Sequence record: NC_024142.2
Source of the DNA: Escherichia phage Bp4
Length of the DNA: 64,000 nt
Direction: 5' to 3' (one strand)
Positions 44,947 through 62,235 of this stretch are shown here, one piece after another (positions within the stretch are counted from its first letter, which is position 1; each line of letters starts with the position of its first letter). The translations under genes were made by a program, and so were the position numbers. The notes beneath the pieces are model-generated. The model saw only the letters and a list, made by a program, of their open reading frames with translations, did not search any database and was not told the origin of the DNA.

Positions 44947-44950
44947 CAGA

Positions 44951-45196: not shown

Positions 45197-45297
45197 TTCA
45201 ACAAGTTTTTCTTTGTTGTCGTGTGGTCGATTCCGTAGAAAGTCATATGCCCATTCATATTCTGGTTTAAAAATCAGATTCTGTAATGGTTTGAAGG

Positions 45298-46680
45298 TTA
45301 GACCAGTATGTCTAGGATTTCCCAGTATTCCCTGTCATCCAGTCCTACGTATTCCAGAATACCAATACGGTGTTCAGTAACATATTTCTTGAAGCCTTTA
45401 CTGGTAATAACTGGCATCAGCTCCATAAAGCGAACATCATCAATGTGGATAGCACCTCTCCGTTTGGCCTTGTTAGCTTCGATTTGATTACGGCAGACAA
45501 CAGTCTCTGCTCTCATCTCATCAGATAACTCATACCATTTCCACATGGTTCCAATTCGAGCAGTTACTGGGCTACCTGAACCAACCTGATTGGCTAGTAC
45601 GTAGTACTTAGGTTGCTCTACTTCAACGAAACCAGACTTATCATGGCGACTTGGGTCTGCAAATTCCTTCTGAATATAAGGCTTTGGTTCCCAATCCCCA
45701 TTTTTATTCCGTATTTGGGTAGCACCAAGAACTGCATTCAATGAAATCAGAGAATTAGTTTTACCTCCTGCCTTGGTTTTATTGGCAGCGATTGTCTTAG
45801 ACCGTTTCTCAGCAGCTATCTTAGCTTTCTCTCTACGGAAGTTAGTTGGTTTGTCCCACTCATTATATTGAGTAAGGTCGATTACCCGATAACCCATAGC
45901 AGTGAACTTAGCCACAGCTTCTTCTGCTGCACCCTTCTTAGGTCCAACGACGTGAACAAAAGCTGTACGCTCCAGGTCACCTCGATCGTACTCAGGGAAG
46001 TACGAGAAAGAGTCTGCACAGTCAGACAAACGTCGGGTAACTACAACGTTTTTGGTAGTGAATATGCCAATACTTTGGTGGGAGTTATTGTATATCCTAA
46101 AGTAGTCAGTAAGTTTACCTTTTACCAAGTCAACACGGTTACCTTGATTCATTATGTAACCAGACCACTTAATACCAGAGGTTTTCAAAGCAGCCAGCTG
46201 AGGTAAGTGCAGATGGCGATATACTAATTCCGAGAATGGGGAGTATGTACTTTCTTCACGAGTATCCTTAAGAGCACGCATAGCCTTACCATACAGTTTC
46301 TTAAGACCTGCGTATTCAGGACGAGCTAATAATGCCTTATTGGATAAATTACGCCAGTGCTTGATGTAATGCTTACGTTGCTTAGCCCACAAACTAGAGG
46401 ACATATAGCGTTGAACAGTTCTGTCTGTAACAGCACCCAGGAATGATGGATACTCCCAGAAGCGAGTAGAGGATTTAGAAGCATATTCTTCAACCTGCTT
46501 AATGGCTTCAGGAATCTTAGCCTTAATCTCTTTCTCCATACGGTCTACTAAATCTACACATAGAGTAGTAATACCATCGTCGGTTAACTTCTGGTTAGAC
46601 AGCGTTTCTCGACTAGGAGCAATAGCTAAAGTGTCTGGTGCAGCCTGAACTACTAGATTAGAAGCACCAATAATATTCAT
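45298..46680 (-). CDS. rIIA-like protein, C-terminal part
   Basis: 460-aa ORF; its frame is open and protein-like for about 40 codons upstream of its ATG, overlapping the end of the GHKL-domain ORF. Confidence 0.5.
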   Translation of the reverse strand: MNIIGASNLVVQAAPDTLAIAPSRETLSNQKLTDDGITTLCVDLVDRMEKEIKAKIPEAIKQVEEYASKSSTRFWEYPSFLGAVTDRTVQRYMSSSLWAKQRKHYIKHWRNLSNKALLARPEYAGLKKLYGKAMRALKDTREESTYSPFSELVYRHLHLPQLAALKTSGIKWSGYIMNQGNRVDLVKGKLTDYFRIYNNSHQSIGIFTTKNVVVTRRLSDCADSFSYFPEYDRGDLERTAFVHVVGPKKGAAEEAVAKFTAMGYRVIDLTQYNEWDKPTNFRREKAKIAAEKRSKTIAANKTKAGGKTNSLISLNAVLGATQIRNKNGDWEPKPYIQKEFADPSRHDKSGFVEVEQPKYYVLANQVGSGSPVTARIGTMWKWYELSDEMRAETVVCRNQIEANKAKRRGAIHIDDVRFMELMPVITSKGFKKYVTEHRIGILEYVGLDDREYWEILDILV

Positions 46681-46697
46681 GAAGTTGAGGATAAGGC

Positions 46698-47516
46698 CTA
46701 CAGCTTCTTCACTAGCTGGGCTGGATACAATTGGTACATTACATTACCGTAGCGAACGTATATGTTACTGCTACCCATATAGCCTTGATACCATCTATCA
46801 GACATATCATATGAACCAGGTTCAAATGGCATGCCTAGTGTATCCAGTAGAGTGTAGTCGCCTTGTTGAATACTATTACTCTCGTCTGTTCTAATGAGTT
46901 TGGGAGTACTTAGCTCAGCTTTAATTTCACCGTTAAACACAATTGATTTGATGTAATGAATAAAGGTATTTAAATCATGTTTGCCTAACTGGAATTTAAC
47001 TTCCAGACCAGATTCCTCAGTAGGAATACCAGTAATAATAGGAACAATACCAGGCTTACCATCATTCTCAATTGCAGCCTTAGCTACGTTATATACCGAC
47101 ATCTTCCCCTGGTTCCATGAAGTAACCTGGAAGCTATCTGTATAAGCGAATGGAGATTTACATCCCAGACCAAAGCCACCAGTAGCACTACTGTTGGCTT
47201 TCTTAGTAGATGCACCATAGACACCATAAATGGAACCAATGAGTTCATCTGGAATACCACTACCGTAATCACGGAAGGTAATAAAGTTGTCTGTATCAAT
47301 GGTGATACGAATAGGGGTATCAGTTTTACCTGCCTCAATATGAGCATCCCAGCTGTTACATATAGTCTCACGAACTACTGCCAGAGTAGGATTGTTATAC
47401 AGGGAAGTACTTAATACATGGAAGAATGCCGGGTCATCAGAGATGCCAAAGGCAATTGTTTCTTTGCCACCCAGTGTCGCTGAGGTAGCTATTTCGTTGG
47501 TATCTGCAACTAACAT
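46698..47516 (-). CDS. rIIA-like protein, N-terminal GHKL ATPase-like domain
   Basis: GHKL boxes: ETICNSWDAH (N-box), FRDYGSGIPDE (G1), GGFGLGCKS (G2). Confidence 0.6.
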   Translation of the reverse strand: MLVADTNEIATSATLGGKETIAFGISDDPAFFHVLSTSLYNNPTLAVVRETICNSWDAHIEAGKTDTPIRITIDTDNFITFRDYGSGIPDELIGSIYGVYGASTKKANSSATGGFGLGCKSPFAYTDSFQVTSWNQGKMSVYNVAKAAIENDGKPGIVPIITGIPTEESGLEVKFQLGKHDLNTFIHYIKSIVFNGEIKAELSTPKLIRTDESNSIQQGDYTLLDTLGMPFEPGSYDMSDRWYQGYMGSSNIYVRYGNVMYQLYPAQLVKKL

Positions 47517-47543
47517 TTATTTACTCTCCAGATTAAATGTTGC

Positions 47544-47792
47544 TTACATTAGAACTTGTTTACACTTATCAAAAATAGCTTTACGAAGTTCAGCTTCTTC
47601 CCGTGGTTCATCATTAGGATGGTGACCTACAGGACTATTTTGAAAAGCATTCATTAGGAATAAGACCTGATACTCGGTTAAACCATTAATCTGAATGCTA
47701 TACGTTTTCTCTGAGGCGATATTTACATTAGCCATTGCGTTTACCTGCCATTGCTTGTAATACAAACACAGCCATATCTGATGCCATGTCAT
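47544..47792 (-). CDS. hypothetical protein
   Basis: 82-aa ORF. Confidence 0.35.
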   Translation of the reverse strand: MTWHQIWLCLYYKQWQVNAMANVNIASEKTYSIQINGLTEYQVLFLMNAFQNSPVGHHPNDEPREEAELRKAIFDKCKQVLM

Positions 47793-48102
47793 CTGTTATA
47801 TCGTTGACCGTTCCATATGGTAGTGGGCCGTTCTCTTCCCAGTTATCTAACGTGTTTTGTACTTCAGCTAAACCAGCCTGAATCATTTCCTTGCTTGGTT
47901 CCAGCCATAACTTACGTTCCTCTGCTAGTGCAGCGATGCATATGCATAGAGAGGCAATGTTAGCTGGACAAGCAGCAATATCACCAGTTACTGCAATCTC
48001 ACTGAGTGGGACAGCCTTACCGGTTTTACTATGAATTACTTCAGGGTTAATCATGAATTTGCTCCAGGTTATGGGCAGGAATAGGGAAGCATGGATAGTC
48101 AC
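47728..48102 (-). CDS. hypothetical protein
   Basis: 124-aa ORF. Confidence 0.35.
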   Translation of the reverse strand: MTIHASLFLPITWSKFMINPEVIHSKTGKAVPLSEIAVTGDIAACPANIASLCICIAALAEERKLWLEPSKEMIQAGLAEVQNTLDNWEENGPLPYGTVNDITDDMASDMAVFVLQAMAGKRNG

Positions 48103-48259
48103 CGGTAGGGTCCAGTGTTACTGACACATGCAGTGTATTTGTCATTTGGGTTAGCATCTGAGCAGCATTGAAATCATCCTGGATACAGGCATATACAATG
48201 TCGCCCTTCTCACCCTCACACATTACGGGTGTGTCTTTGATACGGTATTTAGCAGGCAT
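48047..48259 (-). CDS. hypothetical protein
   Basis: 70-aa ORF. Confidence 0.3.
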   Translation of the reverse strand: MPAKYRIKDTPVMCEGEKGDIVYACIQDDFNAAQMLTQMTNTLHVSVTLDPTGDYPCFPIPAHNLEQIHD

Positions 48260-48285
48260 ATGCCCTCCTGAAAGAGTTAATTGAA

Positions 48286-48313
48286 ACCAAAAAAGACCTC
48301 CCGGAGGAGGTCT
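48286..48313 (-). terminator. intrinsic terminator (minus-strand sense)
   Basis: 8-bp stem AGACCTCC/GGAGGTCT with loop CGGA, followed on the minus strand by TTTTTT. Confidence 0.55.
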
Positions 48314-48318
48314 TAGGT

Positions 48319-48573
48319 TTACTTACGATTTTGTTCTACAAATCGTATCATTTGTTTTTTCACTTCTTCTTGCTCACGAATTGCTTCGTAGTCACGAGCA
48401 AAGTAGTAAACACACCATAAACCAATCTCGCTTACAAAGAACAGAATACTAGCTCGAATGAACTGCATATCTGTTTCTACGACAAAGGCAACTTTGTATG
48501 CGTAGGTCAGTGTTAGTAGGGTACTAATTAGCATTGCGTATAGAGCTAGTTTTTCATTCAGTAATAGTCTCAC
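48319..48573 (-). CDS. small membrane protein
   Basis: 84 aa with two hydrophobic helices. Confidence 0.4.
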   Translation of the reverse strand: MRLLLNEKLALYAMLISTLLTLTYAYKVAFVVETDMQFIRASILFFVSEIGLWCVYYFARDYEAIREQEEVKKQMIRFVEQNRK

Positions 48574-49498
48574 CAGGAATTAATTTACGGAATTGGATAA
48601 AGTGGAGCAGGTTACCTGAGTACAGATTCCCTTCTTTATCCATGGATGTAACACCTTGTTCCCAGGTAACTGGGTTCATGTTATTCACATACTTCTCACC
48701 AAGGTTCATAGGCGTAGCTTGATGTTCCGTTGGGGAAGCATGAATAGGTTGGTTTTCCACTAACTTAGCAAATAAGCCAAGGTCTTCCTCAATAGTAGAG
48801 GGACGTCCCTCAAAGTTGTTATAGGAAGCACGAGCACAGCGTGCAGCACTTACCTTGAGAAGTAGTCCATGCACTTCTGCATCACTTGGTTCATCGCGTG
48901 TAATTCGATTACGTTTGCAGAAATTGTAAGCCCCAACACGGTCAATATGAGCAATATATGGCAAATGCCATTGCCCATACGGTAATGCTCTTGGTGTGCT
49001 TTCTTCGTGTGCCTTACGCATTGCTTGAGCCAGTTCACGAATCTCCGGTTGTGCATCTTTGTGGTCACGCAGTCCATAGAAATTAGCCCAGCTAGTTGAA
49101 GTTACCACTACACGGATATGTGTGAATGGTTCCAGAATACGGTTAACAATTTGCTTATGTACTTGCCCACGACGAAGGATTTCAGCATAGATAGCTGCAC
49201 TTGTGGCAGCTTGTTGCCATGCAAATGTAGCGTCTACAATCTCCAAAGGGGTGAGTTCTTCCTCTGCTTGCATACCTTTCTGGTTCTTACCCCAGTGACT
49301 TGGCATCACTGGTTCATTACGAACCTGTTCGATGAACTTAGCGGTAGGGATAGCACGACTACTTGAAGCATTGCGGTTGAATACACGGTGAGTCATAAAC
49401 TCACTGTGAATGAATCGGGGATAAACCAATTCAAAAGTTGTGATACGAGTTCCTGTTTCTGGATGAACGGAATCTGCAATTACTGATGCCTTAATCAT
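48554..49498 (-). CDS. thyX: flavin-dependent thymidylate synthase (ThyX)
   Basis: ThyX signature RHR-x7-S: FMTHRVFNRNASSSRAIP; 314 aa. Confidence 0.75.
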   Translation of the reverse strand: MIKASVIADSVHPETGTRITTFELVYPRFIHSEFMTHRVFNRNASSSRAIPTAKFIEQVRNEPVMPSHWGKNQKGMQAEEELTPLEIVDATFAWQQAATSAAIYAEILRRGQVHKQIVNRILEPFTHIRVVVTSTSWANFYGLRDHKDAQPEIRELAQAMRKAHEESTPRALPYGQWHLPYIAHIDRVGAYNFCKRNRITRDEPSDAEVHGLLLKVSAARCARASYNNFEGRPSTIEEDLGLFAKLVENQPIHASPTEHQATPMNLGEKYVNNMNPVTWEQGVTSMDKEGNLYSGNLLHFIQFRKLIPGETITE

Positions 49499-49941
49499 TA
49501 GAATGACCTTAGATAGTTGGTGATACCACTTCTCGTCTCTGTGATTCTCTTAACCTGAACATATACCAGCTTAAACTCACTACGAGGTAGTTCTTGTAAT
49601 ACTGCTACACCTTCAGTAAGAGCCACAGAACACGCTACAGCGGTTTCTTCTTTAAAGGAGTACAAGTCTTCATACATGAGGGCTTCATACTCTTTACGGA
49701 GCATACAGAGAGCATTTCTTGCTTTATCACTTACTTCTTGTGAACCAGCAGACATAGCTAAGCTGTATATGATAAAGACTTGTTCAAAAACAAAGTCCAG
49801 TAATCTATCAGGGTTGTTAGCCCCCATAAATAATTTTGTTGTGTAGGAACGAGCTTTACGGTTGAGTTCATACTCATCCTCTATGCCTTTATTATACAGA
49901 ACAGGATTTCGTTTCCTTTTTCTTAGGAATGGGATACGCAT
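49498..49941 (-). CDS. hypothetical protein
   Basis: 147-aa ORF; start overlaps upstream stop. Confidence 0.4.
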   Translation of the reverse strand: MRIPFLRKRKRNPVLYNKGIEDEYELNRKARSYTTKLFMGANNPDRLLDFVFEQVFIIYSLAMSAGSQEVSDKARNALCMLRKEYEALMYEDLYSFKEETAVACSVALTEGVAVLQELPRSEFKLVYVQVKRITETRSGITNYLRSF

Positions 49942-50321
49942 TAGTATTTACTACCTCTTCTATACCAGGGGTAGTGATGAGTAGTGCTCTTACCTTTGAA
50001 CACATCCTTGGTATAAGGATTCTTTTGTATTTGAGCCAAGTAAAGATGCATTTCGTCATAACACGGGCTAAGCCAGAACTTATCTATGATTCGGTCTACC
50101 TTAGATTTCAGATGGGGTTCTGGAGGAATGTATGAATGAAAAGGTCTGCTAGTAACCCATCCTTTCTGAACAAGAGCCTGCATTGTTGTGTAAAGATCTA
50201 ATTCAATTTCATTATCTACTTGATCATGTACAGCTTTACCTAAGGTGAGCATTGCAGTTTGTTCCAGCTTACCGAAGTCCAGTCCTTGTAGGATAGACTT
50301 ACCATTTCGTCTGTTTGACAT
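49941..50321 (-). CDS. hypothetical protein
   Basis: 126-aa ORF. Confidence 0.4.
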   Translation of the reverse strand: MSNRRNGKSILQGLDFGKLEQTAMLTLGKAVHDQVDNEIELDLYTTMQALVQKGWVTSRPFHSYIPPEPHLKSKVDRIIDKFWLSPCYDEMHLYLAQIQKNPYTKDVFKGKSTTHHYPWYRRGSKY

Positions 50322-50476
50322 AAGAGTACCTATAATTAAAAAAGCCCACGGGTTAGGTGGGCTTGGGTTAGGAGATGGATAAGCAATGAGCTGGAAGCAA
50401 CTTCCACAAGCATCACTATGTAATGATGCTTAGGTTAGTTACTCTGCTTTACTACCACCGTTGGTTTGTACAACAG

Positions 50477-50716
50477 TTACATTTGTAACCTGGTTCTGCC
50501 TTTGTTGGACAGTGACCAAATCAGTGCTACTACCCAGAATACCAGTGACCAGCCTAATACTATATTAAGCACGCCAATGCCCCACTTAGAGGCATGGCCT
50601 CGTGCAAAAGCAATGATAGTAGGGATAAGGTATACAGCTAATATAAACAACATAACAAGGATTGCTGCTAAAGATTCCATGATGGTTCCTATGTGGGGTT
50701 GAGTTAGTTTCTTCAC
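50477..50716 (-). CDS. small membrane protein
   Basis: 79 aa, two hydrophobic segments. Confidence 0.4.
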   Translation of the reverse strand: MKKLTQPHIGTIMESLAAILVMLFILAVYLIPTIIAFARGHASKWGIGVLNIVLGWSLVFWVVALIWSLSNKGRTRLQM

Positions 50717-50753
50717 AAATAGCCCAACAATGCTGGGCTATTTAGGCAGCTAC

Positions 50754-50963
50754 TTACTCAGCGTCTTTGCTTGCAGGAGCAAGAGCTTTCTTCAGGTAAT
50801 TACGTACTGAACGATAGGTTTCTTTGGTATCCATAGTACTATCATTTACGAATGTGATACGTGCACAATCAGACAGTGGAATTTGTTCCACTCCTACTAC
50901 ATTTGCAGCATTAATGGTTACACGTACATCTGAGGTTGCATGAGTTACTTGAAATACTGACAT
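50754..50963 (-). CDS. hypothetical protein
   Basis: 69-aa ORF. Confidence 0.35.
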   Translation of the reverse strand: MSVFQVTHATSDVRVTINAANVVGVEQIPLSDCARITFVNDSTMDTKETYRSVRNYLKKALAPASKDAE

Positions 50964-50972
50964 GTTGTTTCC

Positions 50973-51479
50973 TTATTTACTGCTTCTTGCAGCTACTGGT
51001 TTGTTTTCCTGGTTCTGATACTTGCCATTGTAATTAGCAGGTTCCTGAACCAGATGAAATAATACTTGAGCTATCCCAGAACCAGCCGGGATATGCAGTT
51101 TCTTACGACCGTGATAGACAAGTTCGAGGGTAAGATACCCTTTCCATCCTGGTTCTATTACGGTATTGAACACAGATAATGCACGTCTTGCCCAGGTAGA
51201 CTTATCGTGAACGATGGCTACACAGGAAGGAGACATGTTGAACTTCTCAATTGCTGAAGCCAATGTGAACTTACCGAGATGGCGTGATACTTGATTTCCA
51301 TCAACGACTTTCACCATTGGAATCAACCCAAATAAGCGATAGAAGGTAATATCTTGTTTGATACGAATATCATAACCAGCTTCACCCAATCCATAGCTTA
51401 CACCATGCTCGGATACCTTACGGTCTGGGACATCCAGCAACTGAGATGAACGATAAAGAGAATTACCATTAACAACCAT
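50973..51479 (-). CDS. dCTP deaminase / dUTPase-family protein
   Basis: Motifs VSYGLGEAGYDIRI and PAGSGIAQV resemble the dCTP deaminase/dUTPase fold; 168 aa. Confidence 0.5.
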   Translation of the reverse strand: MVVNGNSLYRSSQLLDVPDRKVSEHGVSYGLGEAGYDIRIKQDITFYRLFGLIPMVKVVDGNQVSRHLGKFTLASAIEKFNMSPSCVAIVHDKSTWARRALSVFNTVIEPGWKGYLTLELVYHGRKKLHIPAGSGIAQVLFHLVQEPANYNGKYQNQENKPVAARSSK

Positions 51480-51997
51480 TATTTCATTCCTTTAGGGATA
51501 TGAACTACCTCCCCAAAAGGTACGGTAGCATTAGGATTATTCAGAACACACCAGATGATAGGAATATCAAATGGTAATTCTTTCATTGGGCGAACATACA
51601 TATCGGAGAATATGATTGCAGCGGTTGGCTTATTCTTAATAATCCAATCACGTACTGGTTCAAGGCTTGTACCACCACGACCAGTAATCTTAATCTCTTC
51701 AAAAGTATCTTCTTCAGTGATGTCTATTTCTTCCTGGATAATATCGTCGAAGGTAATTAGTGACATCTTCTTAGGATTGAACTGACTTTTAACGTAGGCG
51801 ACTTCTGAGTTAAAACGCAGAGAGTCAGCACTACTAATAGAACCAGATACATCCTCAAAGTAGGCTAAGTGACGTAGACGTCCTTCATCATCTTCTAAGG
51901 AAGGTAGATAGATGTCAGTGTAACGACGGTTGGGTCTGGCCCACGTATAATGTGTGTCATCAATGTCGGTAAAAAGTTCATCAGAACTTCCTGCCAT
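51479..51997 (-). CDS. von Willebrand factor A (vWA) domain protein
   Basis: MIDAS-like DVSGSIS and GRGGTSL motifs. Confidence 0.55.
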   Translation of the reverse strand: MAGSSDELFTDIDDTHYTWARPNRRYTDIYLPSLEDDEGRLRHLAYFEDVSGSISSADSLRFNSEVAYVKSQFNPKKMSLITFDDIIQEEIDITEEDTFEEIKITGRGGTSLEPVRDWIIKNKPTAAIIFSDMYVRPMKELPFDIPIIWCVLNNPNATVPFGEVVHIPKGMK

Positions 51998-52051
51998 GGA
52001 ACCACTGGTTTAAGGAATTGGGTAATAACCTCTTCCATACGACCAGCACCT

Positions 52052-52651
52052 TTACCAGGCATCTGTCCACCAGCCATTTTCTGGCTCTGCATTGCACGTA
52101 CTACGTTGTTGACAACAGCACCCTGGGACTGCCCGAAGTGGGGATTTCATGTCGCCAGCAAGACCTGCTCCAGCACCCCCTGACGGCTTCTGCCTTTTCT
52201 GAGGGTTCTTCATCAGGTCATCGTAGATGTCTTCTTCGACCCATCCTTTATATTGAGGGTCTTTGCAAATGCCTTCATCAATGCCAGTGAACTTGTAACC
52301 ATCTTCTTCTAACTGAAGGTTAATGAAGTGGTCACAAGCCTGGTTCCAGACTTCTGGGTCACGGCTTCCACGTCGGATGTCGTGTAGATATGCCACATGC
52401 CATAATTCATGCATAAGCACTGTTTCTCTTACATCTGGACACATCCAGATAAAGAAATCTGGGTTGAAATGGAGTTCTATCCCATCAGTACATGCAGTGG
52501 GACAATCCTCACGTTTCCATGAGAATTTAAGACTACACAGTAATGAACCAAAGAAGGCTGCGCTGCGACCTAAAAAAGCCTGCGCTTGGATTCTATCGTA
52601 CTCCCTCATTAGCTGCTCATCTGTGAGACTATGCGTAGGTATACTGTTCAT
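52052..52651 (-). CDS. putative zinc metallopeptidase-like protein (HExxH)
   Basis: HELWHVAYLH motif; partners with the vWA gene; C-terminal 30 aa look non-protein-like. Confidence 0.5.
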   Translation of the reverse strand: MNSIPTHSLTDEQLMREYDRIQAQAFLGRSAAFFGSLLCSLKFSWKREDCPTACTDGIELHFNPDFFIWMCPDVRETVLMHELWHVAYLHDIRRGSRDPEVWNQACDHFINLQLEEDGYKFTGIDEGICKDPQYKGWVEEDIYDDLMKNPQKRQKPSGGAGAGLAGDMKSPLRAVPGCCCQQRSTCNAEPENGWWTDAW

Positions 52652-52983
52652 TAGGGTGCTCCATGATTGGGGTGATAGCCATACAGTTTTTCAGCCGCTT
52701 TTCTGGCGTCTATGGCATCTTGCTTGTCTGCAAAAGTGCCCAAACTTACCAGACGTGTTCCATCAGATATAGCTGCATACCAGATGGAATCACGCTTGTG
52801 CCAGTACACACCAGTAACACCACTGGAATTAGTTACCCGTTTCTTTTGGTTTCTGGTGTTAGTTCTGCTGTCTACTAATCTAAAGTTACTTAGAAGGTTA
52901 TTAACCCTATTGTGGTCTAGGTGATCAATCTGCATACCTTTCGGGATAGGTCCATTGTGCATTTCCCATATGACACGGTGCAC
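52651..52983 (-). CDS. HNH homing endonuclease with AP2-like domain
   Basis: HNH box QIDHLDHNRVNN and AP2-like GVYWHKRDSIWYAAISDGTRLVSLGTFADKQDAIDARKAAEKLYG. Confidence 0.75.
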   Translation of the reverse strand: MHRVIWEMHNGPIPKGMQIDHLDHNRVNNLLSNFRLVDSRTNTRNQKKRVTNSSGVTGVYWHKRDSIWYAAISDGTRLVSLGTFADKQDAIDARKAAEKLYGYHPNHGAP

Positions 52984-53136
52984 TTTGTAACTTTTGCCCT
53001 TATAGTTGAAGCATAAATAACCATCGCTATTTAGATTACCTACCTTTTTCCAGCAATGCCTCTGGAGGCTACTGTAACTTTCCAGAATAGCTCCCCATTT
53101 ATGTAAACGAGTATGTCATTCCAGTTCATGTTGTGA

Positions 53137-53637
53137 TTACCCGTGAATGTAGCGAGAGATATTAGCAGCAGCCTTACGCCATTCAGGGGTAGCCTGAAGA
53201 TCTGGTAATGCATTGCCTACTGTACGGAAGTACAGAATCTTATGGGTGAACGTTTTAAAGCGTTCAATATACTGAAGAACATCAGCAAAGTTTTCTTCAG
53301 TAGTTTTGTTAGCCAGATGGTTAACGGTAGCCCAACACAGGTTGTTATCTTCTGGTAGTGCACAACCCATAGGGTCTTTGACTACTTTTTCAATCGTAAT
53401 GATACGATTGTATACCTGAGTGAACTGAACAAACTCTGTAGCCTTACCAGCAGTAACGTGACCTGAATAGTAGATAGAATCTTCATCAGGAAGAGCACCT
53501 TCTGGTAAGTTCTTGAGGTCTTTATTAACAAAGTCCCAAGTACGAGGGCAACAGAACGTTTTGTTCTTATGTGCTGGGTCGAAGTCATGCAGATAACCAG
53601 GGTTAGCATGTAAGAATGCAACCAGACGTTCATCCAT
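53137..53637 (-). CDS. AAA+ ATPase, C-terminal part (after frame change)
   Basis: 166-aa ORF whose frame is open from about 53645; continues the ATPase in the -1 frame. Confidence 0.5.
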   Translation of the reverse strand: MDERLVAFLHANPGYLHDFDPAHKNKTFCCPRTWDFVNKDLKNLPEGALPDEDSIYYSGHVTAGKATEFVQFTQVYNRIITIEKVVKDPMGCALPEDNNLCWATVNHLANKTTEENFADVLQYIERFKTFTHKILYFRTVGNALPDLQATPEWRKAAANISRYIHG

Positions 53638-54188
53638 TGCTGAGGAATCATTACATCTTCAACAAAGATGTCGAAGTTAAGTTCCATTTCAAAGTGAACC
53701 ACACGAGACTGCATTGCAGTACCCAGTGGGTTAACAATGGCACGGTCAGTAGCTTTGTTACCAGCACAGACAATCATCACATTAGGATGAAGTTTTTTCT
53801 GACCAGTCATACGGTCTAGAATCAGTTTATATGCAGCAGCTACTACTTCTTTCTTAGCTGAGTTGAACTCATCAAGGAATAAGAGCCAGCCATTATACCC
53901 TTCTGGTAATTCATCTCCCTCAATTGGGAATAAGTCAGCGAATGGAATAAACTCTGCACGGTCACCATTACGGAATGGTAAGCCAGAAAGGTCTTCCGGG
54001 GCAGAAGTTGACAGACGATGGTCTATCAACTTCATACCAAATTCTTCTGCAATAGAACGAATGATTGCAGATTTACCCATGCCAGGTGATGAAGTCAGGA
54101 ACGGTACGTTACCTGCTTTCAAAGCACGGATAATAAAGTTACGAGCTTGACGTGAATTACATACGGTCAAGGAGTCAATGCTTGCCAT
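53382..54188 (-). CDS. AAA+ ATPase, N-terminal part (real coding probably ends near 53640)
   Basis: Walker A SSPGMGKSAI and Walker B LLFLDEFN; after VHFEMELNFDIFVEDV the ORF becomes low-complexity (likely out of frame). Confidence 0.6.
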   Translation of the reverse strand: MASIDSLTVCNSRQARNFIIRALKAGNVPFLTSSPGMGKSAIIRSIAEEFGMKLIDHRLSTSAPEDLSGLPFRNGDRAEFIPFADLFPIEGDELPEGYNGWLLFLDEFNSAKKEVVAAAYKLILDRMTGQKKLHPNVMIVCAGNKATDRAIVNPLGTAMQSRVVHFEMELNFDIFVEDVMIPQQWMNVWLHSYMLTLVICMTSTQHIRTKRSVALVLGTLLIKTSRTYQKVLFLMKILSTIQVTLLLVRLQSLFSSLRYTIVSLRLKK

Positions 54189-54222
54189 TTACTTACTCTC
54201 CTAAAGCTAATGGAATTACTGA

Positions 54223-54552
54223 TTAAGATTTAGTGCAGGGATAGGCCTTGTGTACTGAGTACACAACAATTTGAGATGTATTCTTCATCTTGAGGATTGC
54301 AGAGTCATAAATAACCACTTTGGCAATCTTAGGCAGAATGACCGAATATTTAATACCTTCTGGAACACAGTTATCTGTGCTCTCGATGTAAGAGATCATA
54401 CTGCCCATGAAGAAACCTTGTCCGAACGCATCACGAGTGTCATCCAGGTAAGCCTGAGCACCTTCCAGAATTGGTTCTGGTTCAATTGCTTGTGCACTTG
54501 GGGCTAAAGCTATCAGTGCAGCTACTGCAATACCTTTAAGTAAAGTTTTCAT
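54223..54552 (-). CDS. secreted/periplasmic small protein with signal peptide
   Basis: N-terminal MKTLLKGIAVAALIALAPSAQA signal-like sequence; 109 aa. Confidence 0.45.
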   Translation of the reverse strand: MKTLLKGIAVAALIALAPSAQAIEPEPILEGAQAYLDDTRDAFGQGFFMGSMISYIESTDNCVPEGIKYSVILPKIAKVVIYDSAILKMKNTSQIVVYSVHKAYPCTKS

Positions 54553-54738
54553 TTAGTTACCTTTCATTTCATTGAGTTTAAGTACACCGATAGGGGTTAA
54601 TGACCACCCAAGACCAGCATTGAACTGAACTAAGCCCAGCTTCTTAAGAGACTGTGCGGTTTTGTTATTACGGTTGCTGGTGGCAGAACCACCTTGAACC
54701 ATACGAAGGAAGATTGCTTGGGACTGAGTTAATTTCAA
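54553..54738 (-). CDS. hypothetical small protein
   Basis: 61-aa ORF, abuts neighbours. Confidence 0.35.
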   Translation of the reverse strand: MKLTQSQAIFLRMVQGGSATSNRNNKTAQSLKKLGLVQFNAGLGWSLTPIGVLKLNEMKGN

Positions 54739-54944
54739 AGGTAATATCCTTCCAGGTTTATTGGTGTTACAAATGTATTTGCTGATAGATAGAATGATTT
54801 ACCAGTTTCTACAGCAACAGCAGCAGGTTTGCCTTCAGGTAGGTGAATCTTTAAACACACTGTCTGGTTATAAATAAAACCATTAGCAGGCTCTACATCA
54901 CCGAAAGTTACTTCATTGTTCTCAGAACGATTTGTTACTTTCAC
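54735..54944 (-). CDS. hypothetical small protein
   Basis: 69-aa ORF, overlapping start/stop with neighbours. Confidence 0.35.
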   Translation of the reverse strand: MKVTNRSENNEVTFGDVEPANGFIYNQTVCLKIHLPEGKPAAVAVETGKSFYLSANTFVTPINLEGYYL

Positions 54945-55201
54945 TCATCTTCTCCTTCATCCGGTAGCGGTGATAAATCTACACCTAAATGCTTCAGGCG
55001 TTTCTCTAAGTCATCTACCTTATTTTGATAAAATGACAGTAGCTCAGGTAGTATTCTTGTACGAGCTTGCGGTCCTAAATCCTTATCGTAAAAGGATACT
55101 TTCACCATATGTGGAGCTTTCTTCAAACTAGCTAATTGCTGTCGGTTGTCGTTGTATTCTTCATACAATTTCTCAACCAAATGTAGATTGTGGATATTCA
55201 T
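54941..55201 (-). CDS. hypothetical protein
   Basis: 86-aa ORF. Confidence 0.35.
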   Translation of the reverse strand: MNIHNLHLVEKLYEEYNDNRQQLASLKKAPHMVKVSFYDKDLGPQARTRILPELLSFYQNKVDDLEKRLKHLGVDLSPLPDEGEDE

Positions 55202-55386
55202 TTCTTCTCCGGTACGAACTGCATTACACAGCTTTGATTACGAGGGATATTAAGTTCACATTCATGCTTGAGGGTTTGTGTTACAGAGTTTGGAGTAGAA
55301 CCAAAATAGGTATTGGAGATAGCTACGAATCCTGCACCTATTAAACCACCTAGTAAGAATGAGAAGAATGCAATCTCTTTATACAT
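55198..55386 (-). CDS. small membrane protein
   Basis: 62 aa with one hydrophobic helix. Confidence 0.35.
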   Translation of the reverse strand: MYKEIAFFSFLLGGLIGAGFVAISNTYFGSTPNSVTQTLKHECELNIPRNQSCVMQFVPEKK

Positions 55387-55446
55387 TTCCTGGCTCCAGA
55401 TGTAGAAAACCCAGTCAATGCTGGGGTTTATCTATCAGTTTATACT

Positions 55447-55707
55447 TTATAGACCATGTGGTCGGCATAGACTACCCGAACCAAACGAACGGTGTCCAAG
55501 TCGGCCCAGGATTAGATTGCTTACTTCAGCAGCAGCACGACTGAATGCTTTAAAGTCAAAAACTACGATACCAAAGAGTGGGGCTGCAATAGCAGCTACC
55601 ATGATTGGAGTCAGGTCAACCAGTGACATACCCAAGATTAAGTGAGCAGCGTAGGCAATAATACCCATTCCAACACCACAACCATATCCAATAGCAATTT
55701 TACGCAT
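55447..55707 (-). CDS. small membrane protein
   Basis: 86 aa, Gly/Ala/Ile-rich hydrophobic segments. Confidence 0.4.
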   Translation of the reverse strand: MRKIAIGYGCGVGMGIIAYAAHLILGMSLVDLTPIMVAAIAAPLFGIVVFDFKAFSRAAAEVSNLILGRLGHRSFGSGSLCRPHGL

Positions 55708-55777
55708 AGTTACCTTCTTAGTTAGTAAGTTGATTTACATATTCATATAACAGACAAACAATAGTCAAAAAAGACTC

Positions 55778-55802
55778 CCTTCAATAGGGAGGTCAAGCTT
55801 GA
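55778..55802 (-). terminator. intrinsic terminator (minus-strand sense)
   Basis: Hairpin GACCTCCC-TATTGAA-GGGAGTC followed on the minus strand by TTTTTT. Confidence 0.5.
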
Positions 55803-55844
55803 GGGTTTTATTTCAGGGTTTATAACCCCAAACAAAGGATACTC

Positions 55845-56723
55845 TTATTCTGCAACAGTAACAGGGATAGTTACATCGACCGTACCATTGGTAACTACTA
55901 CAGAAGTAGCTTCACCAGCAGCCACTGGTTTAACTGTCAGTACGTTACCAGCAATGGTAGCCGTAGCACGAGCAGAATCTGGAGCAGTCTTGATAGACAA
56001 AGTACCAGCAGATGAACCAACGGGCATAGCAACAATTGTTACGGTCTTACCAGCAGCAAGATCATCAGCAACAGACAGAGCCAGTGAAGCAGGAGTAGCT
56101 ACCAGTGAACTTGCTTCGTAATAGCCTACAGCTAATAGTGATTCATCCTCTACCGTGGTTCCATTAGCATCAGTAACAATCACTTTGTAAGTACCAGCAG
56201 AAGTAGCTGTTACGTCATTAAGAGTCAGTGTTGCAGTAGCAGCGGATTCGTTCTCACCTGAATCAATATCAGCGAATGCTGCTCCAGCAGTATCAGCTTT
56301 GAATTGCCATTTATAAGTAAATGGTGCTTTCCCACCTGCTACATCAACGTGCCAGTTGATGTCTTCACCTTCGATAGTAGAGACTACACGAGGCAGTTTG
56401 GTAGCAATAGTCAGTCGTGGGGTAGCTTTCATATCAATAGAGATAGACTGCATATCCACAATGTTGTTAGGCCAGAAGCCTGCTTTACTTGGGTCTTTAG
56501 CAGAACGTTTATACAGCAGGTCACGAACACCATGATAGATAACTAAGCTATCTGGGTAAGTGGCATCTGGGTGTTCAAAAGTTCCTACTTCTATGGAACC
56601 ACCTGGGATAGAACCACTGGCATCCAGTACAGTTGCAACATTAGTGGTTTTGTTAAAACCTACTTTCAAAGTTGGCATATCAATTTCCTCATAAGTAAAT
56701 AGCAGAGTTAGTATACATGACAT
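55845..56723 (-). CDS. Ig-like domain protein (capsid decoration protein candidate, N4 gp17-like by position)
   Basis: Thr/Ala/Val-rich beta-strand repeats (TYKVIVTDANGTTVE, TVTIVAMPVGSSAGT); located right after the RNAP II genes. Confidence 0.45.
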   Translation of the reverse strand: MSCILTLLFTYEEIDMPTLKVGFNKTTNVATVLDASGSIPGGSIEVGTFEHPDATYPDSLVIYHGVRDLLYKRSAKDPSKAGFWPNNIVDMQSISIDMKATPRLTIATKLPRVVSTIEGEDINWHVDVAGGKAPFTYKWQFKADTAGAAFADIDSGENESAATATLTLNDVTATSAGTYKVIVTDANGTTVEDESLLAVGYYEASSLVATPASLALSVADDLAAGKTVTIVAMPVGSSAGTLSIKTAPDSARATATIAGNVLTVKPVAAGEATSVVVTNGTVDVTIPVTVAE

Positions 56724-56727
56724 GTAA

Positions 56728-56756
56728 AAAATAAACCCTCCGTTAGGAGGGTTAGT
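56728..56756 (-). terminator. intrinsic terminator (minus-strand sense)
   Basis: Hairpin AACCCTCC-GTTA-GGAGGGTT followed on the minus strand by TATTTTTT. Confidence 0.5.
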
Positions 56757-56967
56757 TGTTTACACAGTAGATAGCAAAAGCTATCCATCCTGCCATTACA
56801 AAGCAGCCTAGTGAGTATGCTCCATAGTAGTAATAAGCAAACTTAGATTTGTGGGCATGAACTATTGTAGACAGAACCAGTACAGATAAAACTATCAGTA
56901 TTAACTGAGAGATTACTTCAAAAGGGATTAGCATAGTTGTTACCTCCAAGCAAAAAATATGCCTCAC
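56752..56967 (-). CDS. small membrane protein
   Basis: 71 aa, two hydrophobic helices. Confidence 0.4.
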   Translation of the reverse strand: MRHIFCLEVTTMLIPFEVISQLILIVLSVLVLSTIVHAHKSKFAYYYYGAYSLGCFVMAGWIAFAIYCVNN

Positions 56968-56991
56968 TCCCGAAGGAATGAGGCTAGTTTA

Positions 56992-58239
56992 TTAACTCAA
57001 CGCATAGTCTGTTTCAAGAATGTCCTGCCAGAGGCTGTCATCCAGCTTACCAGCAGAGAACTCTTGCCCCAGTACCTGAGACAGGATGAAGCCCAGTAGG
57101 TCACTCTTAGCAATATCAGACAGGATCTGATTGTACTGACGACGCAGGTCATTACCGTAGTTAGGATGGCAACGGAAGCAGTCATGTACAGTCATTACAG
57201 GGAATGGTTTCTTAGGCAGAGTGTCAATCATATCTGCTACTACCTGACGGTCTACATAAGCAATAGTACATGGGTCAAGATAGTCCAGGATGGATAAAGA
57301 TAAGAAGCCAGACTTCTCATAATGGCTCCATAGCTCTTGTACCTTCTCCAGATTACCTGCAATCTCCCCATATTCTGATGGACCTTCATCACAGAGTTCT
57401 CGCACAGCTTCCACTAAGTCACGGTCGAAGTTACAACGACGCAGCATCTCACGTACCACCATCCCATCAATAGAGTGGGTGATGTTAGCAGAGAGCATAC
57501 GAGTCTTCTCTTCAGTACCCTGAACCATACGAGTAATGTCGAACGGTTTGCCTAAGAAGTTAACAGTCTGTACTTCTGGAACCATGACCTTAATGACAGC
57601 GTGGAAGTTGTCAGGAAGTATCCATATGTAACGGTTGGCATCTGGATTACCACATTGCAGTAAGAACTTGTTCAATGCCCAAGGACCACTAGCAACAGTT
57701 TCCATTACATTCTCAAAAGTCTTGAGACGAATACCTTCACCGAATACTTCTTTAGGCTTGGCTTCTGAGCCGTAGAACGCAGTCATAACTGCCTGCTTAG
57801 TGTCACTACGTTTAATACGAGATGCTTCACCAAGGATGTCCAACATCTTGTGATAGATGACTGTATAAGCATCACGACGTAATGGCTTACCATTCTCACC
57901 CATGTAATTAACTACGTTACACAGTTCAGCAGCAGAGCGGTCACCCGTCAGACAAGCCAGTAATTGCAAGCCAGATGATGTAGCATCCAGAGCTACGGCA
58001 TAACCAATAGGCTTACCTGCTTTCATATCTTTCCATGCATTTACACCAGCATAGAACAGTGCAGAATCTTCAGCTTCATCTACCAGATTAAGCAGGTTAG
58101 CTTCGTTCTCATCGAACCAGGCAATACGCTCATCCCATGTCTTTTTATCCAGACCATAGTTATTGGCGATATCTACTTTCAGGTATTGTTTAGCGGTTAA
58201 CAGTTGCATTTTATGTTCCTTTTGCTTCTTGCTCCCCAC
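56992..58239 (-). CDS. phage RNA polymerase II large subunit (T7-like single-subunit RNAP catalytic half, N4 gp16-like)
   Basis: T7-like motifs: ALDATSSGLQLLA (motif A), RSDTKQAVMTAFYGS (motif B), TVHDCFRCH (motif C). Confidence 0.8.
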   Translation of the reverse strand: MGSKKQKEHKMQLLTAKQYLKVDIANNYGLDKKTWDERIAWFDENEANLLNLVDEAEDSALFYAGVNAWKDMKAGKPIGYAVALDATSSGLQLLACLTGDRSAAELCNVVNYMGENGKPLRRDAYTVIYHKMLDILGEASRIKRSDTKQAVMTAFYGSEAKPKEVFGEGIRLKTFENVMETVASGPWALNKFLLQCGNPDANRYIWILPDNFHAVIKVMVPEVQTVNFLGKPFDITRMVQGTEEKTRMLSANITHSIDGMVVREMLRRCNFDRDLVEAVRELCDEGPSEYGEIAGNLEKVQELWSHYEKSGFLSLSILDYLDPCTIAYVDRQVVADMIDTLPKKPFPVMTVHDCFRCHPNYGNDLRRQYNQILSDIAKSDLLGFILSQVLGQEFSAGKLDDSLWQDILETDYALS

Positions 58240-58415
58240 TATGGAGAGCCTGCTTATTGGATGGTTAGGCAGTTACTACGTCGGCAGATAGTTTATAAAT
58301 AATGGTTTTACTCTCAGGGTTTTGAAGCTTGTAAAGCTTCTCAAAGTATAAGCACTTCACATATGTACCTGAGTAGACACACTCTTCATTAACCCATAAT
58401 TCATAGGAGCCAATG

Positions 58416-59234
58416 TTAGTCTTCATTTACTAACTCCTTATCAGCGAACTCCAGTACAGCTTTGTTGTAGCTGGTTCCCTGATAGTTGATGTGGTAGCCA
58501 CAGGCATATGTACGCCCACGTTTGTCATATTTGTGAGCCAGTGAGAAGTTATTACCTTCCTTGGTCACTAACTCCATTACCTCTTTAGCTGTACGGCTGT
58601 ACTTTTCAAAGGCTTTAACACGTTTCTCATAGTCCTGACGGGTTTCACCTTCTTTGGGTTTATCCATGTTAGGACGAGAGTCTTTTACATAGTTAGCAAC
58701 GTCCCAGTTAATACAGAGACGTTGGTTATTCATACGGTTAATGTGGTCAAGACAGACATCCATTTCATGATGGTTCTTCTTGAGAATGATGCTACCCCTG
58801 CTTTCGTAGTAACCAGTATCACGGTTACATAGAACAGGCTTAGGAGCACTTACGATAGGCAATGGATACTGGAATGCTTCCAGTTCCATCTGTACATCTT
58901 CACTAATCTCATAAATAACACCGAACTTGTCGATGGTAGGGTCATAGTTGAAGCAGTCATTCTCTGCCATCTTATACAGACAGTCAGCGATGTACTGAGC
59001 ATCATCTGAGTGACTCATGAGAGAGCCAATCATAGTTTGGATGTCAGCACGTTTATGTAGGGCAATCTGCACCATTGCATCAATGAGCAGCTTATAATCA
59101 ATTTCTAAATAGGCAGCGAATGCCTTAAAGTCAATTTCTTCGGAGTCCTCGAATTCCTTCCTCATGCGAGGGAGTAATTGATTCTTGTTGAAAAGGATTT
59201 CAAGTTGCTTCTGATGTTCAATAGATGAGTACAT
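58416..59234 (-). CDS. phage RNA polymerase II small subunit (N-terminal half of split T7-like RNAP, N4 gp15-like)
   Basis: 272 aa directly upstream of the catalytic subunit; the split arrangement is characteristic of N4 RNAP II. Confidence 0.65.
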   Translation of the reverse strand: MYSSIEHQKQLEILFNKNQLLPRMRKEFEDSEEIDFKAFAAYLEIDYKLLIDAMVQIALHKRADIQTMIGSLMSHSDDAQYIADCLYKMAENDCFNYDPTIDKFGVIYEISEDVQMELEAFQYPLPIVSAPKPVLCNRDTGYYESRGSIILKKNHHEMDVCLDHINRMNNQRLCINWDVANYVKDSRPNMDKPKEGETRQDYEKRVKAFEKYSRTAKEVMELVTKEGNNFSLAHKYDKRGRTYACGYHINYQGTSYNKAVLEFADKELVNED

Positions 59235-59267
59235 CGCTTATTCTCCTAAATGTGATTAATAACCAAA

Positions 59268-59282
59268 AGCTGCGGAGCAGCT
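59268..59282 (-). promoter_or_regulatory. hairpin promoter candidate (N4 vRNAP-type), template-strand hairpin AGCTGC-GGA-GCAGCT
   Basis: 6-bp stem, 3-nt GGA loop on the plus (template) strand, about 35 nt upstream of the RNAP II small subunit start; shares the GCGGAGC core with two other hairpins. Confidence 0.45.
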
Positions 59283-59287
59283 ATTAC

Positions 59288-59548
59288 CTAACGCTTAGTC
59301 CAAAAGGCAATACGAATACTGTTCTCTTGACCAAGATAGTTAATACGTACATATAATCCATTACCATTAAATTCTTTTCTTTTTTCTTGATAAGGCCATA
59401 CCAGACTACGCATAGGTATATTAACAAAACCTGATATGTGACCTAACTTAGTACGACCTTTTAGTTCGTTTTGTAATGCACAATAGATATCATGTCGTGT
59501 AAGTGCTCTGGCTCTGACTTGAGCAGACCACAGTTCTTCATATGTCAT
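59288..59548 (-). CDS. hypothetical early protein
   Basis: 86-aa ORF. Confidence 0.4.
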   Translation of the reverse strand: MTYEELWSAQVRARALTRHDIYCALQNELKGRTKLGHISGFVNIPMRSLVWPYQEKRKEFNGNGLYVRINYLGQENSIRIAFWTKR

Positions 59549-59934
59549 GAGAAGGTTCCCCAGTAGATATAGTCATCTCCCAGAATAGGCTTCCAGGCTT
59601 CGTCAAACATGACATTGCCTGTAGCATTGGCAAACATAGGAGCAATATCTTCATCCTTATAACCAGCTAATCCACAACCAATACGTGTTACTTTAAAGTC
59701 CCACTCTGGGTGGGCTGCTGCGTATAGAATGAAGGATGCTACGAATGTCTTAATGTCCTTTAACGGCATAGTCTTGATTGACTGGTCTTTGGTTGGGATT
59801 GCATAGCTGCAACCATAATGGCCTACGCCCATACCCCAACGAGCACCATGCTTCTTATATGCAACTTTCGCTGCACCAGCGCCGTGACGTCCTGCTAAAT
59901 TACTTCCGAATACGAAGATTTCTTTCATTTGCAC
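59545..59934 (-). CDS. hypothetical protein with Gly-rich nucleotide-binding-like motif
   Basis: FVFGSNLAGRHGAGAAKVA and GCSYAIPTKD motifs; 129 aa. Confidence 0.4.
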   Translation of the reverse strand: MQMKEIFVFGSNLAGRHGAGAAKVAYKKHGARWGMGVGHYGCSYAIPTKDQSIKTMPLKDIKTFVASFILYAAAHPEWDFKVTRIGCGLAGYKDEDIAPMFANATGNVMFDEAWKPILGDDYIYWGTFS

Positions 59935-60105
59935 AATTTCCTGTTGTAGTTGTAAGCCTCTTGTTGAGTCATACTTGTATTAGCATGAGTTAGCTCCAAA
60001 TACGTCAGAGCATATTCATGTCACGCTGTTCCTTCTTGGTTCGGCAATGACCACATTTACCATCCCATTGGGATACATGGCCTTTACCACATTTGCATTG
60101 TTTGT

Positions 60106-60369
60106 TCATTTAAAAGTACTCCATGGTATGGACTCCAAGTAATTAATTTTGTAAATAATCTTACTTCTTATTTCTCCACCAACATCTTGTACATGGATTA
60201 GGTTTAACCTTTGTGCTTGGGTTATAGTAGCTGCAAGAGTTCTCCCCATAATATTTGATATTTCTATAAAAGATTTATTGGATTCTACTAGTATCTTTAA
60301 ATTAGTATTATCTAAGTTACTCCACTCTTTAGAATGATTTGCTGGCTTATCCATTAGGATTCTCCACAA
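60106..60369 (-). CDS. hypothetical early protein
   Basis: 87-aa ORF. Confidence 0.4.
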   Translation of the reverse strand: MWRILMDKPANHSKEWSNLDNTNLKILVESNKSFIEISNIMGRTLAATITQAQRLNLIHVQDVGGEIRSKIIYKINYLESIPWSTFK

Positions 60370-60727
60370 AATAGTTATACATAGCTTTTACTAGTTTCTC
60401 TTTAATAACCTCACCATGACAAGGTTTCGGATAACAGAAGCACTGTAAGGCTAACCCTTTTTCGTCAATGGCTTTATTACCCAGACGATTAAGTTCATCC
60501 AGTACAACTGGATTCTTTCTCATTATTTGCTCATTAAGCCATACTCGATACTTGGCTATAACCTGTTCTCTTGAACCGTCTTTACCAATAACGAATGGAT
60601 TGCCTAATGGTGAGCCACGTCCAATATACTCACCGGATTTACCGTGATGTTTATTAACAATGTTAATTGGACGGGCAGATACACCTAGTAAAGCATTGGT
60701 GTCATCACCTAAAGAGATAATCTTCAT
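60347..60727 (-). CDS. hypothetical protein (DUF4326-like motif pattern)
   Basis: GRGSPLGNPF and CFCYPKPCHGE motifs; 126 aa. Confidence 0.4.
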   Translation of the reverse strand: MKIISLGDDTNALLGVSARPINIVNKHHGKSGEYIGRGSPLGNPFVIGKDGSREQVIAKYRVWLNEQIMRKNPVVLDELNRLGNKAIDEKGLALQCFCYPKPCHGEVIKEKLVKAMYNYFVENPNG

Positions 60728-61038
60728 GGTTTAAGTACCTGGAATGGGAATACAGGACGTTTACTACGCCACTGGTTCATAGCTAATTCACTAGTTTCAG
60801 AACCATCATGTAAGTCATAGATAAATGAGATTACATAGTCTGGTTCTTCCGGGAAGTTCTCTATAGAGAACGGTAGACCTGATTCTTTAAGGATGGTAAC
60901 CAGTGGTGATTCAGCATTACAGTAAAGGGTAAACTCTTCATTGAATGCTTGGCTTGTCTGAGATACATAATCAATATTACGCATCATCTTATCTACATCA
61001 GTAAACGTAGAATCATGGATTACTAGAATAGTTTTCAT
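60724..61038 (-). CDS. hypothetical early protein
   Basis: 104-aa ORF; overlapping start/stop with neighbours. Confidence 0.4.
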   Translation of the reverse strand: MKTILVIHDSTFTDVDKMMRNIDYVSQTSQAFNEEFTLYCNAESPLVTILKESGLPFSIENFPEEPDYVISFIYDLHDGSETSELAMNQWRSKRPVFPFQVLKP

Positions 61039-61226
61039 ACTGGCTCCCTGCCTGTAAATGCTACTACTTTTCCTGACATATTCCGTAGGGTTACCTGTGC
61101 TGAGTTAACATCAGCAAATTGCTCTGCAACCCAGTTAAGCATCTCAGGGTCATTATTTAATTGTTTGTTAATCACAGTTTTACTGTCTGCTGTTACTAAA
61201 GTGATTTCATAATTTTCAATATTCAT
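61035..61226 (-). CDS. hypothetical small protein
   Basis: 63-aa ORF. Confidence 0.35.
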   Translation of the reverse strand: MNIENYEITLVTADSKTVINKQLNNDPEMLNWVAEQFADVNSAQVTLRNMSGKVVAFTGREPV

Positions 61227-61480
61227 GCTACTTTCTCCAGCGTTAGGTAAACGTTATTATTGACAATACTCAAATCACAAAAACCAATCTCTTCTTGTCT
61301 CCCAGAGGATACCCAGATATTGTTTTCTGTTAGCTTAGGTTTTTTAGAGAATCCTATTAGTGAGGTATTAGCACTCTTATATTGACGAGGTAGTAATGCT
61401 ATATACTTAACCCAGTGAGGCACTTGAATAGTATGCTTCATATATTCCACAGTCTTGCCTGTAGGATATGCAATAATCAT
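61223..61480 (-). CDS. hypothetical early protein
   Basis: 85-aa ORF. Confidence 0.4.
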   Translation of the reverse strand: MIIAYPTGKTVEYMKHTIQVPHWVKYIALLPRQYKSANTSLIGFSKKPKLTENNIWVSSGRQEEIGFCDLSIVNNNVYLTLEKVA

Positions 61481-61698
61481 TTCTGATACCCCTGTATATA
61501 GTTAATACGGCGAATACGTTGAGTAGATGCTTTAACAGCCATCTGTTGATTCTCTTCTTTATGCTGATTATTCAGCACCTTATCCCATTCTTTCTGATTC
61601 CGTTGTTTCTGTAATATACGACTACACTTCTTATGATTAGCAACTCCTCTTCCTTTATTGCAAATTGGGCAAATACCATAATTAGTGCTGAACAACAT
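61477..61698 (-). CDS. small zinc-ribbon-like protein
   Basis: CPICNKGRGVANHKKC Cys pattern; 73 aa. Confidence 0.4.
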   Translation of the reverse strand: MLFSTNYGICPICNKGRGVANHKKCSRILQKQRNQKEWDKVLNNQHKEENQQMAVKASTQRIRRINYIQGYQK

Positions 61699-61703
61699 TT
61701 TGT

Positions 61704-61934
61704 TTATTCCTTAGTAATGTGATTGGCAGTATAGAAGTCATTAATCTCTGATTGGGTAGTATCAGCATAACCGGATACACCGGTTTCTTTATTAACCCAT
61801 TTATCGAAGCACTCACTGTGTCCATGTGTACTAACTTTTACCCATGTACTGGTTCCAAAGAATGTTTTTTTCTCTACTTCTGCACCAATACCACGTTCAT
61901 TATCTGCAAAGCGTATTACCTTATATTTAGCCAT
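61704..61934 (-). CDS. hypothetical early protein
   Basis: 76-aa ORF. Confidence 0.4.
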   Translation of the reverse strand: MAKYKVIRFADNERGIGAEVEKKTFFGTSTWVKVSTHGHSECFDKWVNKETGVSGYADTTQSEINDFYTANHITKE

Positions 61935-62235
61935 TTAATGCCTCCATTAATATTTTACGAATAACGTTAACATCAGACTCTGTACCAATTAAGCCAACAG
62001 GCTTGCCTGTACTATCTGTTACAAAGGATGCAATCCTTTCCATCTCTGCTGTAATTAGTTTGTCCCCACTAATAAGACGATTACGGAGGTAAGCTTCATA
62101 AGCTACCTCTACATCTTCTACTGTGGTTCTTTCATTACGAGTGAATGGATTACTTAATTGAAAGGGTAAGTGGATACGGATATTCCTGTCAGCTATCTTA
62201 GCTGATTGAGGAAGTATACAAACAATTTCATTCAA
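61927..62235 (-). CDS. hypothetical early protein
   Basis: 102-aa ORF. Confidence 0.4.
   Translation of the reverse strand: MNEIVCILPQSAKIADRNIRIHLPFQLSNPFTRNERTTVEDVEVAYEAYLRNRLISGDKLITAEMERIASFVTDSTGKPVGLIGTESDVNVIRKILMEALNG

Follow-up and report, generated by a model that had tools for sequence, protein, structure and literature searches.

Open reading frames at the locus

The stretch of DNA analysed here, hereafter called the window, comprises 64,000 nucleotides of the Escherichia phage Bp4 genome record (NC_024142.2). Its minus strand carries two overlapping open reading frames (ORFs) of 268 and 166 aa, the second of which lies in the -1 frame relative to the first (Table 1). The initial annotation had described the longer ORF, with its Walker A and Walker B motifs, and the ORF in the -1 frame, and had regarded them as one AAA+ ATPase gene cut by a -1 frame change. 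Both ORFs were confirmed, and both match the same protein family, PHROG 1297, which agrees with a single gene. Specifically, residues 4–185 of the 268-aa ORF as deposited align with positions 3–185 of the PHROG 1297 profile, and residues 1–165 of the 166-aa ORF align with positions 185–354 (E 8.5e-45), whereas no match to this profile was found beyond residue 185 of the 268-aa ORF. The Pfam AAA family was detected in residues 31–146 of the 268-aa ORF (28.2 bits, cut-off 21.2), and no Pfam family was found in the 166-aa ORF, that is, in the C-terminal half of the protein.

The upstream frame remains family-like through ...FVEDVMIPQQW, i.e., up to residue 185 (TGG at 53636..53634), and the downstream frame is family-like from D186 (GAT at 53634..53632). 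Base 53634 is common to both parts of the gene because one G is missing. The initial annotation had placed the junction at ...FVEDV; family likeness is indeed lost within the ORF, but the point lies five residues further on, after Trp185. The -1 frame is open from the TGA at 53661..53659 onwards, seven codons before the junction. The ATG at 53637, which starts the 166-aa ORF, consists of the last base of CAA and the TG of TGG; this start codon is fortuitous and is made by the junction itself. Downstream of the junction, the window and the record of phage Uz-1 (OP312987.1) differ by 23 synonymous and 6 non-synonymous codon changes when read in the frame of the 166-aa ORF, against 2 synonymous and 27 non-synonymous in the frame of the 268-aa ORF; only the former frame is coding in this region.

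Table 1. Features of the ATPase locus, open frames of PD38 that are split in the window, and inserts in homologous genes of other phages. Positions are those of the window unless stated otherwise.
Feature	Position	Strand	Remarks
268-aa ORF	53382..54188	minus	Walker A SSPGMGKSAI and Walker B LLFLDEFN read in the sequence
166-aa ORF	53137..53637	minus	-1 frame relative to the 268-aa ORF
5' part of the gp24-like AAA+ ATPase gene	53634..54188	minus	codons 1-185 (M1..W185); Walker A SPGMGKSA, Walker B LLFLDEFN
3' part of the same ATPase gene	53137..53634	minus	codons 186-350 and stop, -1 frame
Single-base deletion site	53634..53635	minus	GG here; GGG in all relatives examined, PD38 included, apart from Uz-1
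Out-of-frame tail of the 268-aa ORF	53382..53633	minus	83 codons, MNVWLHSYML...; non-coding, stop-free by chance
HNH/AP2 homing endonuclease gene	52651..53129	minus	frameshifted; intact 480-nt CDS (159 aa) in PD38
gp25-like DUF2201_N + DUF2201 (VWA-like) gene	51479..52651	minus	three run contractions interrupt the frame
DNA polymerase, 862 codons open in PD38	38152, 38530, 40079		three deletions, giving three pieces
rIIA, 855 codons in PD38	45304, 46734		two deletions
Primase, 737 codons in PD38	35024		deletion
Large structural gene, 886 codons in PD38	12298		deletion
Large structural gene, 657 codons in PD38	14974-15426		five deleted bases
gp25, 404 codons in PD38			split by deletions
HNH endonuclease frame, 188 codons in PD38			split by deletion
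ATPase, 350 codons in PD38			split by deletion
HNH-bearing insert in gp24 of PW8	802-1669 (within the extracted locus)
HNH-bearing insert in gp24 of pSb-1	914-1781 (within the extracted locus)
HNH-bearing insert in gp24 of Pollock	844-1687 (within the extracted locus)

The missing nucleotide and the neighbouring genes

A megablast search assigned the window to the genus Gamaleyavirus (G7C-like, N4-like phages, Schitoviridae), with Escherichia phage PD38, classified in the species Gamaleyavirus Bp4, as the closest match (99.9% identity). Across positions 51500–54300 the two sequences differ by no substitutions and by five single-base gaps, all of them run contractions in the window (GGG to GG, A6 to A5, C5 to C4, G4 to G3 and T6 to T5). 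The junction sequence is CAA TGG GAT GAA in PD38 and CAA TGG ATG AA in the window. Thus, GG in the window stands against GGG in a near-identical phage in which the ORF is intact, as expected of a homopolymer under-call. Addition of one G yields a 350-aa protein that is 100% identical to its PD38 homologue (AXY81309.1), and the pairing of the two ORFs is therefore not a matter of chance.

The gene is annotated as a single 1053-nt CDS in PD38, in IME11 (IME11_49) and in G7C (gp24, described as 'similar to N4 gp24'). The repaired protein is collinear with IME11_49, G7C gp24 and PHROG 1297; its residues 4–349 align with positions 3–354 of the 356 positions of this 'ATPase' profile (E 1.3e-133). 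The protein was found in 439 phage records at one place that spans 80% or more of the query and, among the matches listed, it is mostly a single in-frame piece across the whole identity range. The comparison with homologues from N4-like phages that the initial annotation had proposed as a check thus bore out its reading, with an intact 1053-nt CDS in PD38 and mostly one in-frame piece in the relatives. The gp24 protein is conserved across the N4-like phages (Schitoviridae).

The remaining four of the five gaps fall in the two neighbouring genes. The HNH gene has A5 on the minus strand (T5 at plus-strand positions 53045–53049) where PD38 has A6. The gaps in gp25 are located at 51975, 52134 and 52139, each position being the last base before the gap in window coordinates; on the coding strand they shorten T6 to T5, G4 to G3 and C5 to C4. 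The gp25 homologue of IME11 matches DUF2201_N, a putative metallopeptidase family (2.7e-54), and DUF2201, a VWA-like family (1.7e-33). The order gp24 then gp25, with or without an HNH gene between them, was observed in the window, IME11, G7C and PD38, and the HNH/AP2 gene lies between the two in Bp4, PD38 and G7C; gp25 is the usual partner of gp24.

Single-base deletions across the window

Comparison of the whole window with PD38 (positions 1..63999 against 64033..1) revealed 3 substitutions and 34 single-base gaps; in every case it is the window that lacks the base, which makes 34 deletions and no insertions. Runs of at least two bases account for 33 of these deletions (binomial p=5e-11), and runs of at least three bases account for 29 (p=4e-21). 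The contraction rate increases with run length, from 1 in 35,446 single bases, 4 in 10,088 runs of two and 10 in 2,096 runs of three to 6 in 378 runs of four, 2 in 85 runs of five, 7 in 25 runs of six and 2 in 4 runs of seven; that is, it climbs from 0.003% for single bases to 28–50% for runs of six and seven. The sole run of eight in the window has lost two bases. Deletions that are one-directional and become more frequent with run length are the signature of homopolymer under-calling, and the pattern is probably due to the sequencing platform. With 34 such deletions in the record, the frame change in the ATPase gene appears as a property of the record and not of the phage.

We further checked the open frames that are intact in PD38 for splits caused by the deletions in the window. 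The affected frames include the DNA polymerase, primase and rIIA genes, two large structural genes and three genes of the ATPase locus (Table 1), and a phage carrying every one of these deletions could not replicate. The three features expected of genome-wide under-calling, namely a one-way excess of indels, a rate climbing with run length and broken essential genes, are therefore all seen in this record.

Separately, positions 29162–30073 contain five of the deletions and only short open frames. The collinear part of the Uz-1 annotation identifies this stretch as a tRNA-bearing intergenic region, the Uz-1 tRNA genes corresponding to about positions 28427–28500 and 29204–29279 of the window.

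Judging from these comparisons of nucleotide and protein sequences, the missing G is very probably a homopolymer under-call made in sequencing or assembly rather than a change in the phage, the gene itself being an intact N4 gp24-like ATPase gene. In this scenario the locus would hold a single gene for a 350-aa N4 gp24-like AAA+ ATPase, the loss of one G of GGG at 53634–53635 in the Bp4 record would drop the frame by one after Trp185, and the real phage would read the gene straight through (...IPQQW-DERLVAF...). Two observations weigh on the other side. A run of three G is short for a flow-type under-call, though 10 of the 34 deletions fall in runs of three, and the same contraction is present in Uz-1, which would favour a real, recurrent change if Uz-1 were an independent assembly.

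A genuine deletion in the sequenced Bp4 stock, which would make gp24 a pseudogene or reduce its product to a truncated ATPase core that lacks the C-terminal half, is improbable. Such a mutation would account for a frame change that is truly present in the deposited sequence, and single-base slippage in short runs is known in nature. It is difficult to reconcile with a difference from PD38 that amounts to 34 one-way single-base deletions, all but one of them in runs, but no more than 3 substitutions; with three deletions in the DNA polymerase gene, which mean that no viable phage can correspond to the entire record; and with the intact gp24 in the related records examined except Uz-1. General AAA+ architecture places the junction at residue 185, just after the strand ...QSRVVHFEM..., at about the start of the helical lid; a truly truncated product would accordingly be without the lid and probably inactive. 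Less probable still is a variant in which GG is real and Bp4 tolerates or compensates a truncated gp24 core, the C-terminal half possibly being translated separately from the ATG at 53637. Were it true, the lid and C-terminal region of a conserved ATPase could be supplied in trans or would be dispensable.

The Uz-1 record

Homologues that end at the same point and are followed by a separate downstream gene were the observation that the initial annotation had set against its own reading. In appearance they are found only in Uz-1, where the same 807-nt ORF is annotated, encoding 268 aa and ending at the same point. This record has the same length as that of Bp4 (72,583 bp), and its positions 8584..72583 align with the window over 64 kb with no net gaps, despite 3,811 substitutions (about 6%); the only gaps are two compensating pairs. 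Moreover, nearly all homopolymer contractions of the window also occur in Uz-1. The equal length of the records, the absence of net gaps and the common contractions together argue that Uz-1 is not independent evidence. To judge by this alignment, Uz-1 appears to be a substitution-only consensus built on the Bp4 record, which would have inherited its split genes. The genes split in Uz-1 include those for the DNA polymerase, primase, an rIIA-like protein and a tail fibre, all of them probably inherited errors.

The annotation of Uz-1 also bears on the possibility that the locus contains two real, separately translated genes, one for an ATPase core and the other for a C-terminal domain protein. 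Besides the 268-aa ORF annotated in Uz-1, this arrangement could draw on PHROG 16335, which is made of the 267/268-aa form. However, Uz-1 is tied to the window by its alignment without net gaps and equal record length, and PHROG 16335 matches the out-of-frame tail too, from which it follows that this family was built from these same records. The start codon of the supposed second gene is created by the junction, and there is no Shine-Dalgarno sequence before the ATG at 53637 (GATTCCTCAGCAATG). Every other relative examined is fused at residue 185, and the relatives in which the gene is truly split carry HNH-containing inserts at other points, residues 67/68 or 119/120. We consider the existence of two genes to be extremely unlikely.

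Consequences for databases

The 268-aa ORF is exactly the deposited protein AHN83418.1 / YP_009032032.1, 'ATPase [Escherichia phage Bp4]'. This frameshifted ORF is matched along its entire length, out-of-frame tail included, by phrog_16335 ('ATPase', 267 positions; 584 bits), a database family that very probably owes its existence to an artefact. The frame change is almost certainly not a real biological feature, and the gene is a known, conserved one. Its biological weight is correspondingly small, that of an ordinary conserved ATPase of N4-like phages, and the practical value of the observation is a data-quality warning on the Bp4 record, a RefSeq genome and the name-giver of the species Gamaleyavirus Bp4. 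In 64 kb this record carries no fewer than 34 single-base deletions, of which 33 lie in base runs, and it needs correction throughout; the Uz-1 record appears to have taken over its errors. Analyses of core genes, pseudogenes or recoding that use the Bp4 or Uz-1 records would be misled.

Comparison with recoded, interrupted and related ATPase genes

Two overlapping frames that together encode one family are also characteristic of genes with programmed -1 frameshifting, such as dnaX and the phage tail chaperone G/GT, and the -1 frame at the Bp4 locus opens seven codons before the junction. Programmed -1 ribosomal frameshifting or transcriptional slippage could in principle join the two ORFs on this basis. 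Unlike dnaX and G/GT, however, the Bp4 locus lacks a slippery heptamer, a stimulatory structure and a conserved two-frame layout. A scan of the gene found no heptamer of the X XXY YYZ type where the two frames overlap (53661 to 53634), the only slippery heptamer of the gene being TTTAAAA at 53259, beyond the stop codon of the 0 frame. Neither an A/T run of at least five bases nor a G/C run of at least four was found near the junction, and the predicted fold of the 90 nt downstream is no more stable than those of shuffled sequences (-16.3 kcal/mol, z = -0.47). In addition, the relatives are in frame with GGG, and the two-frame layout is shared only with the non-independent Uz-1. We therefore give recoding hardly any credence.

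True interruptions of gp24 are known from PW8, pSb-1 and Pollock, whose genes belong to the same family as that of Bp4 and are annotated as two 'ATPase' CDSs. In PW8 and pSb-1 the break is at residues 67/68, in Pollock it is at residues 119/120, and in each case it is caused by an insert of about 0.85–0.87 kb that carries an HNH endonuclease (Table 1). The inserts give weak matches to group I introns (25–34 bits against a gathering score of 50), and one strong group I intron is found upstream in Pollock (positions 200–552 of the extracted locus, 101 bits). In contrast to these three phages, gp24 of Bp4 carries no insert and differs only by a 1-nt deletion at residue 185. A split of the Bp4 gene by a mobile element was considered and rejected, the break points of the relatives being unrelated to residue 185.

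With respect to function, the protein contains the AAA+ motifs Walker A, GxxxxGK[ST] (SPGMGKSA), and Walker B, hhhhDE (LLFLDEFN), and its matches to the AAA family (PF00004) score 28.2 and 27.2 bits, above the gathering cut-off of 21.2. The best match of the repaired protein among solved structures is an AAA module of midasin (6or5_A, E 2.9e-4); an NCBIfam search with the repaired protein gave no match, and biochemical work on the phage gp24 protein was not found in the literature examined. Like the MoxR/midasin (AAA_5-type) ATPases, Bp4 gp24 combines Walker A and Walker B motifs with a partner gene for a VWA-like protein. Unlike them, it scores below the Pfam cut-offs for AAA_5 (PF07728, 16.9–17.9 against 22) and bpMoxR (PF20030, 14.2 against 27), and its C-terminal 165 residues match no Pfam family. 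Thus, gp24 resembles the MoxR/AAA_5 subfamily in sequence, at scores that do not establish membership. MoxR-type ATPases pair with proteins containing VWA/MIDAS domains, and because of this known pairing we infer by analogy that gp24 may be a MoxR/midasin-type ATPase that forms an ATP-driven remodelling pair with the VWA-like gp25.

The closest known counterpart of the Bp4 gene is gp24 of PD38, IME11, G7C and N4 (PHROG 1297), with which it shares the length of 350 aa after the addition of one G, and in IME11 and G7C gp24 lies upstream of gp25, in the same position as the ATPase gene of Bp4. Unlike gp24 of PD38, the Bp4 copy is one G short and is consequently annotated as a protein of 268 aa that ends in an out-of-frame tail of 83 residues.
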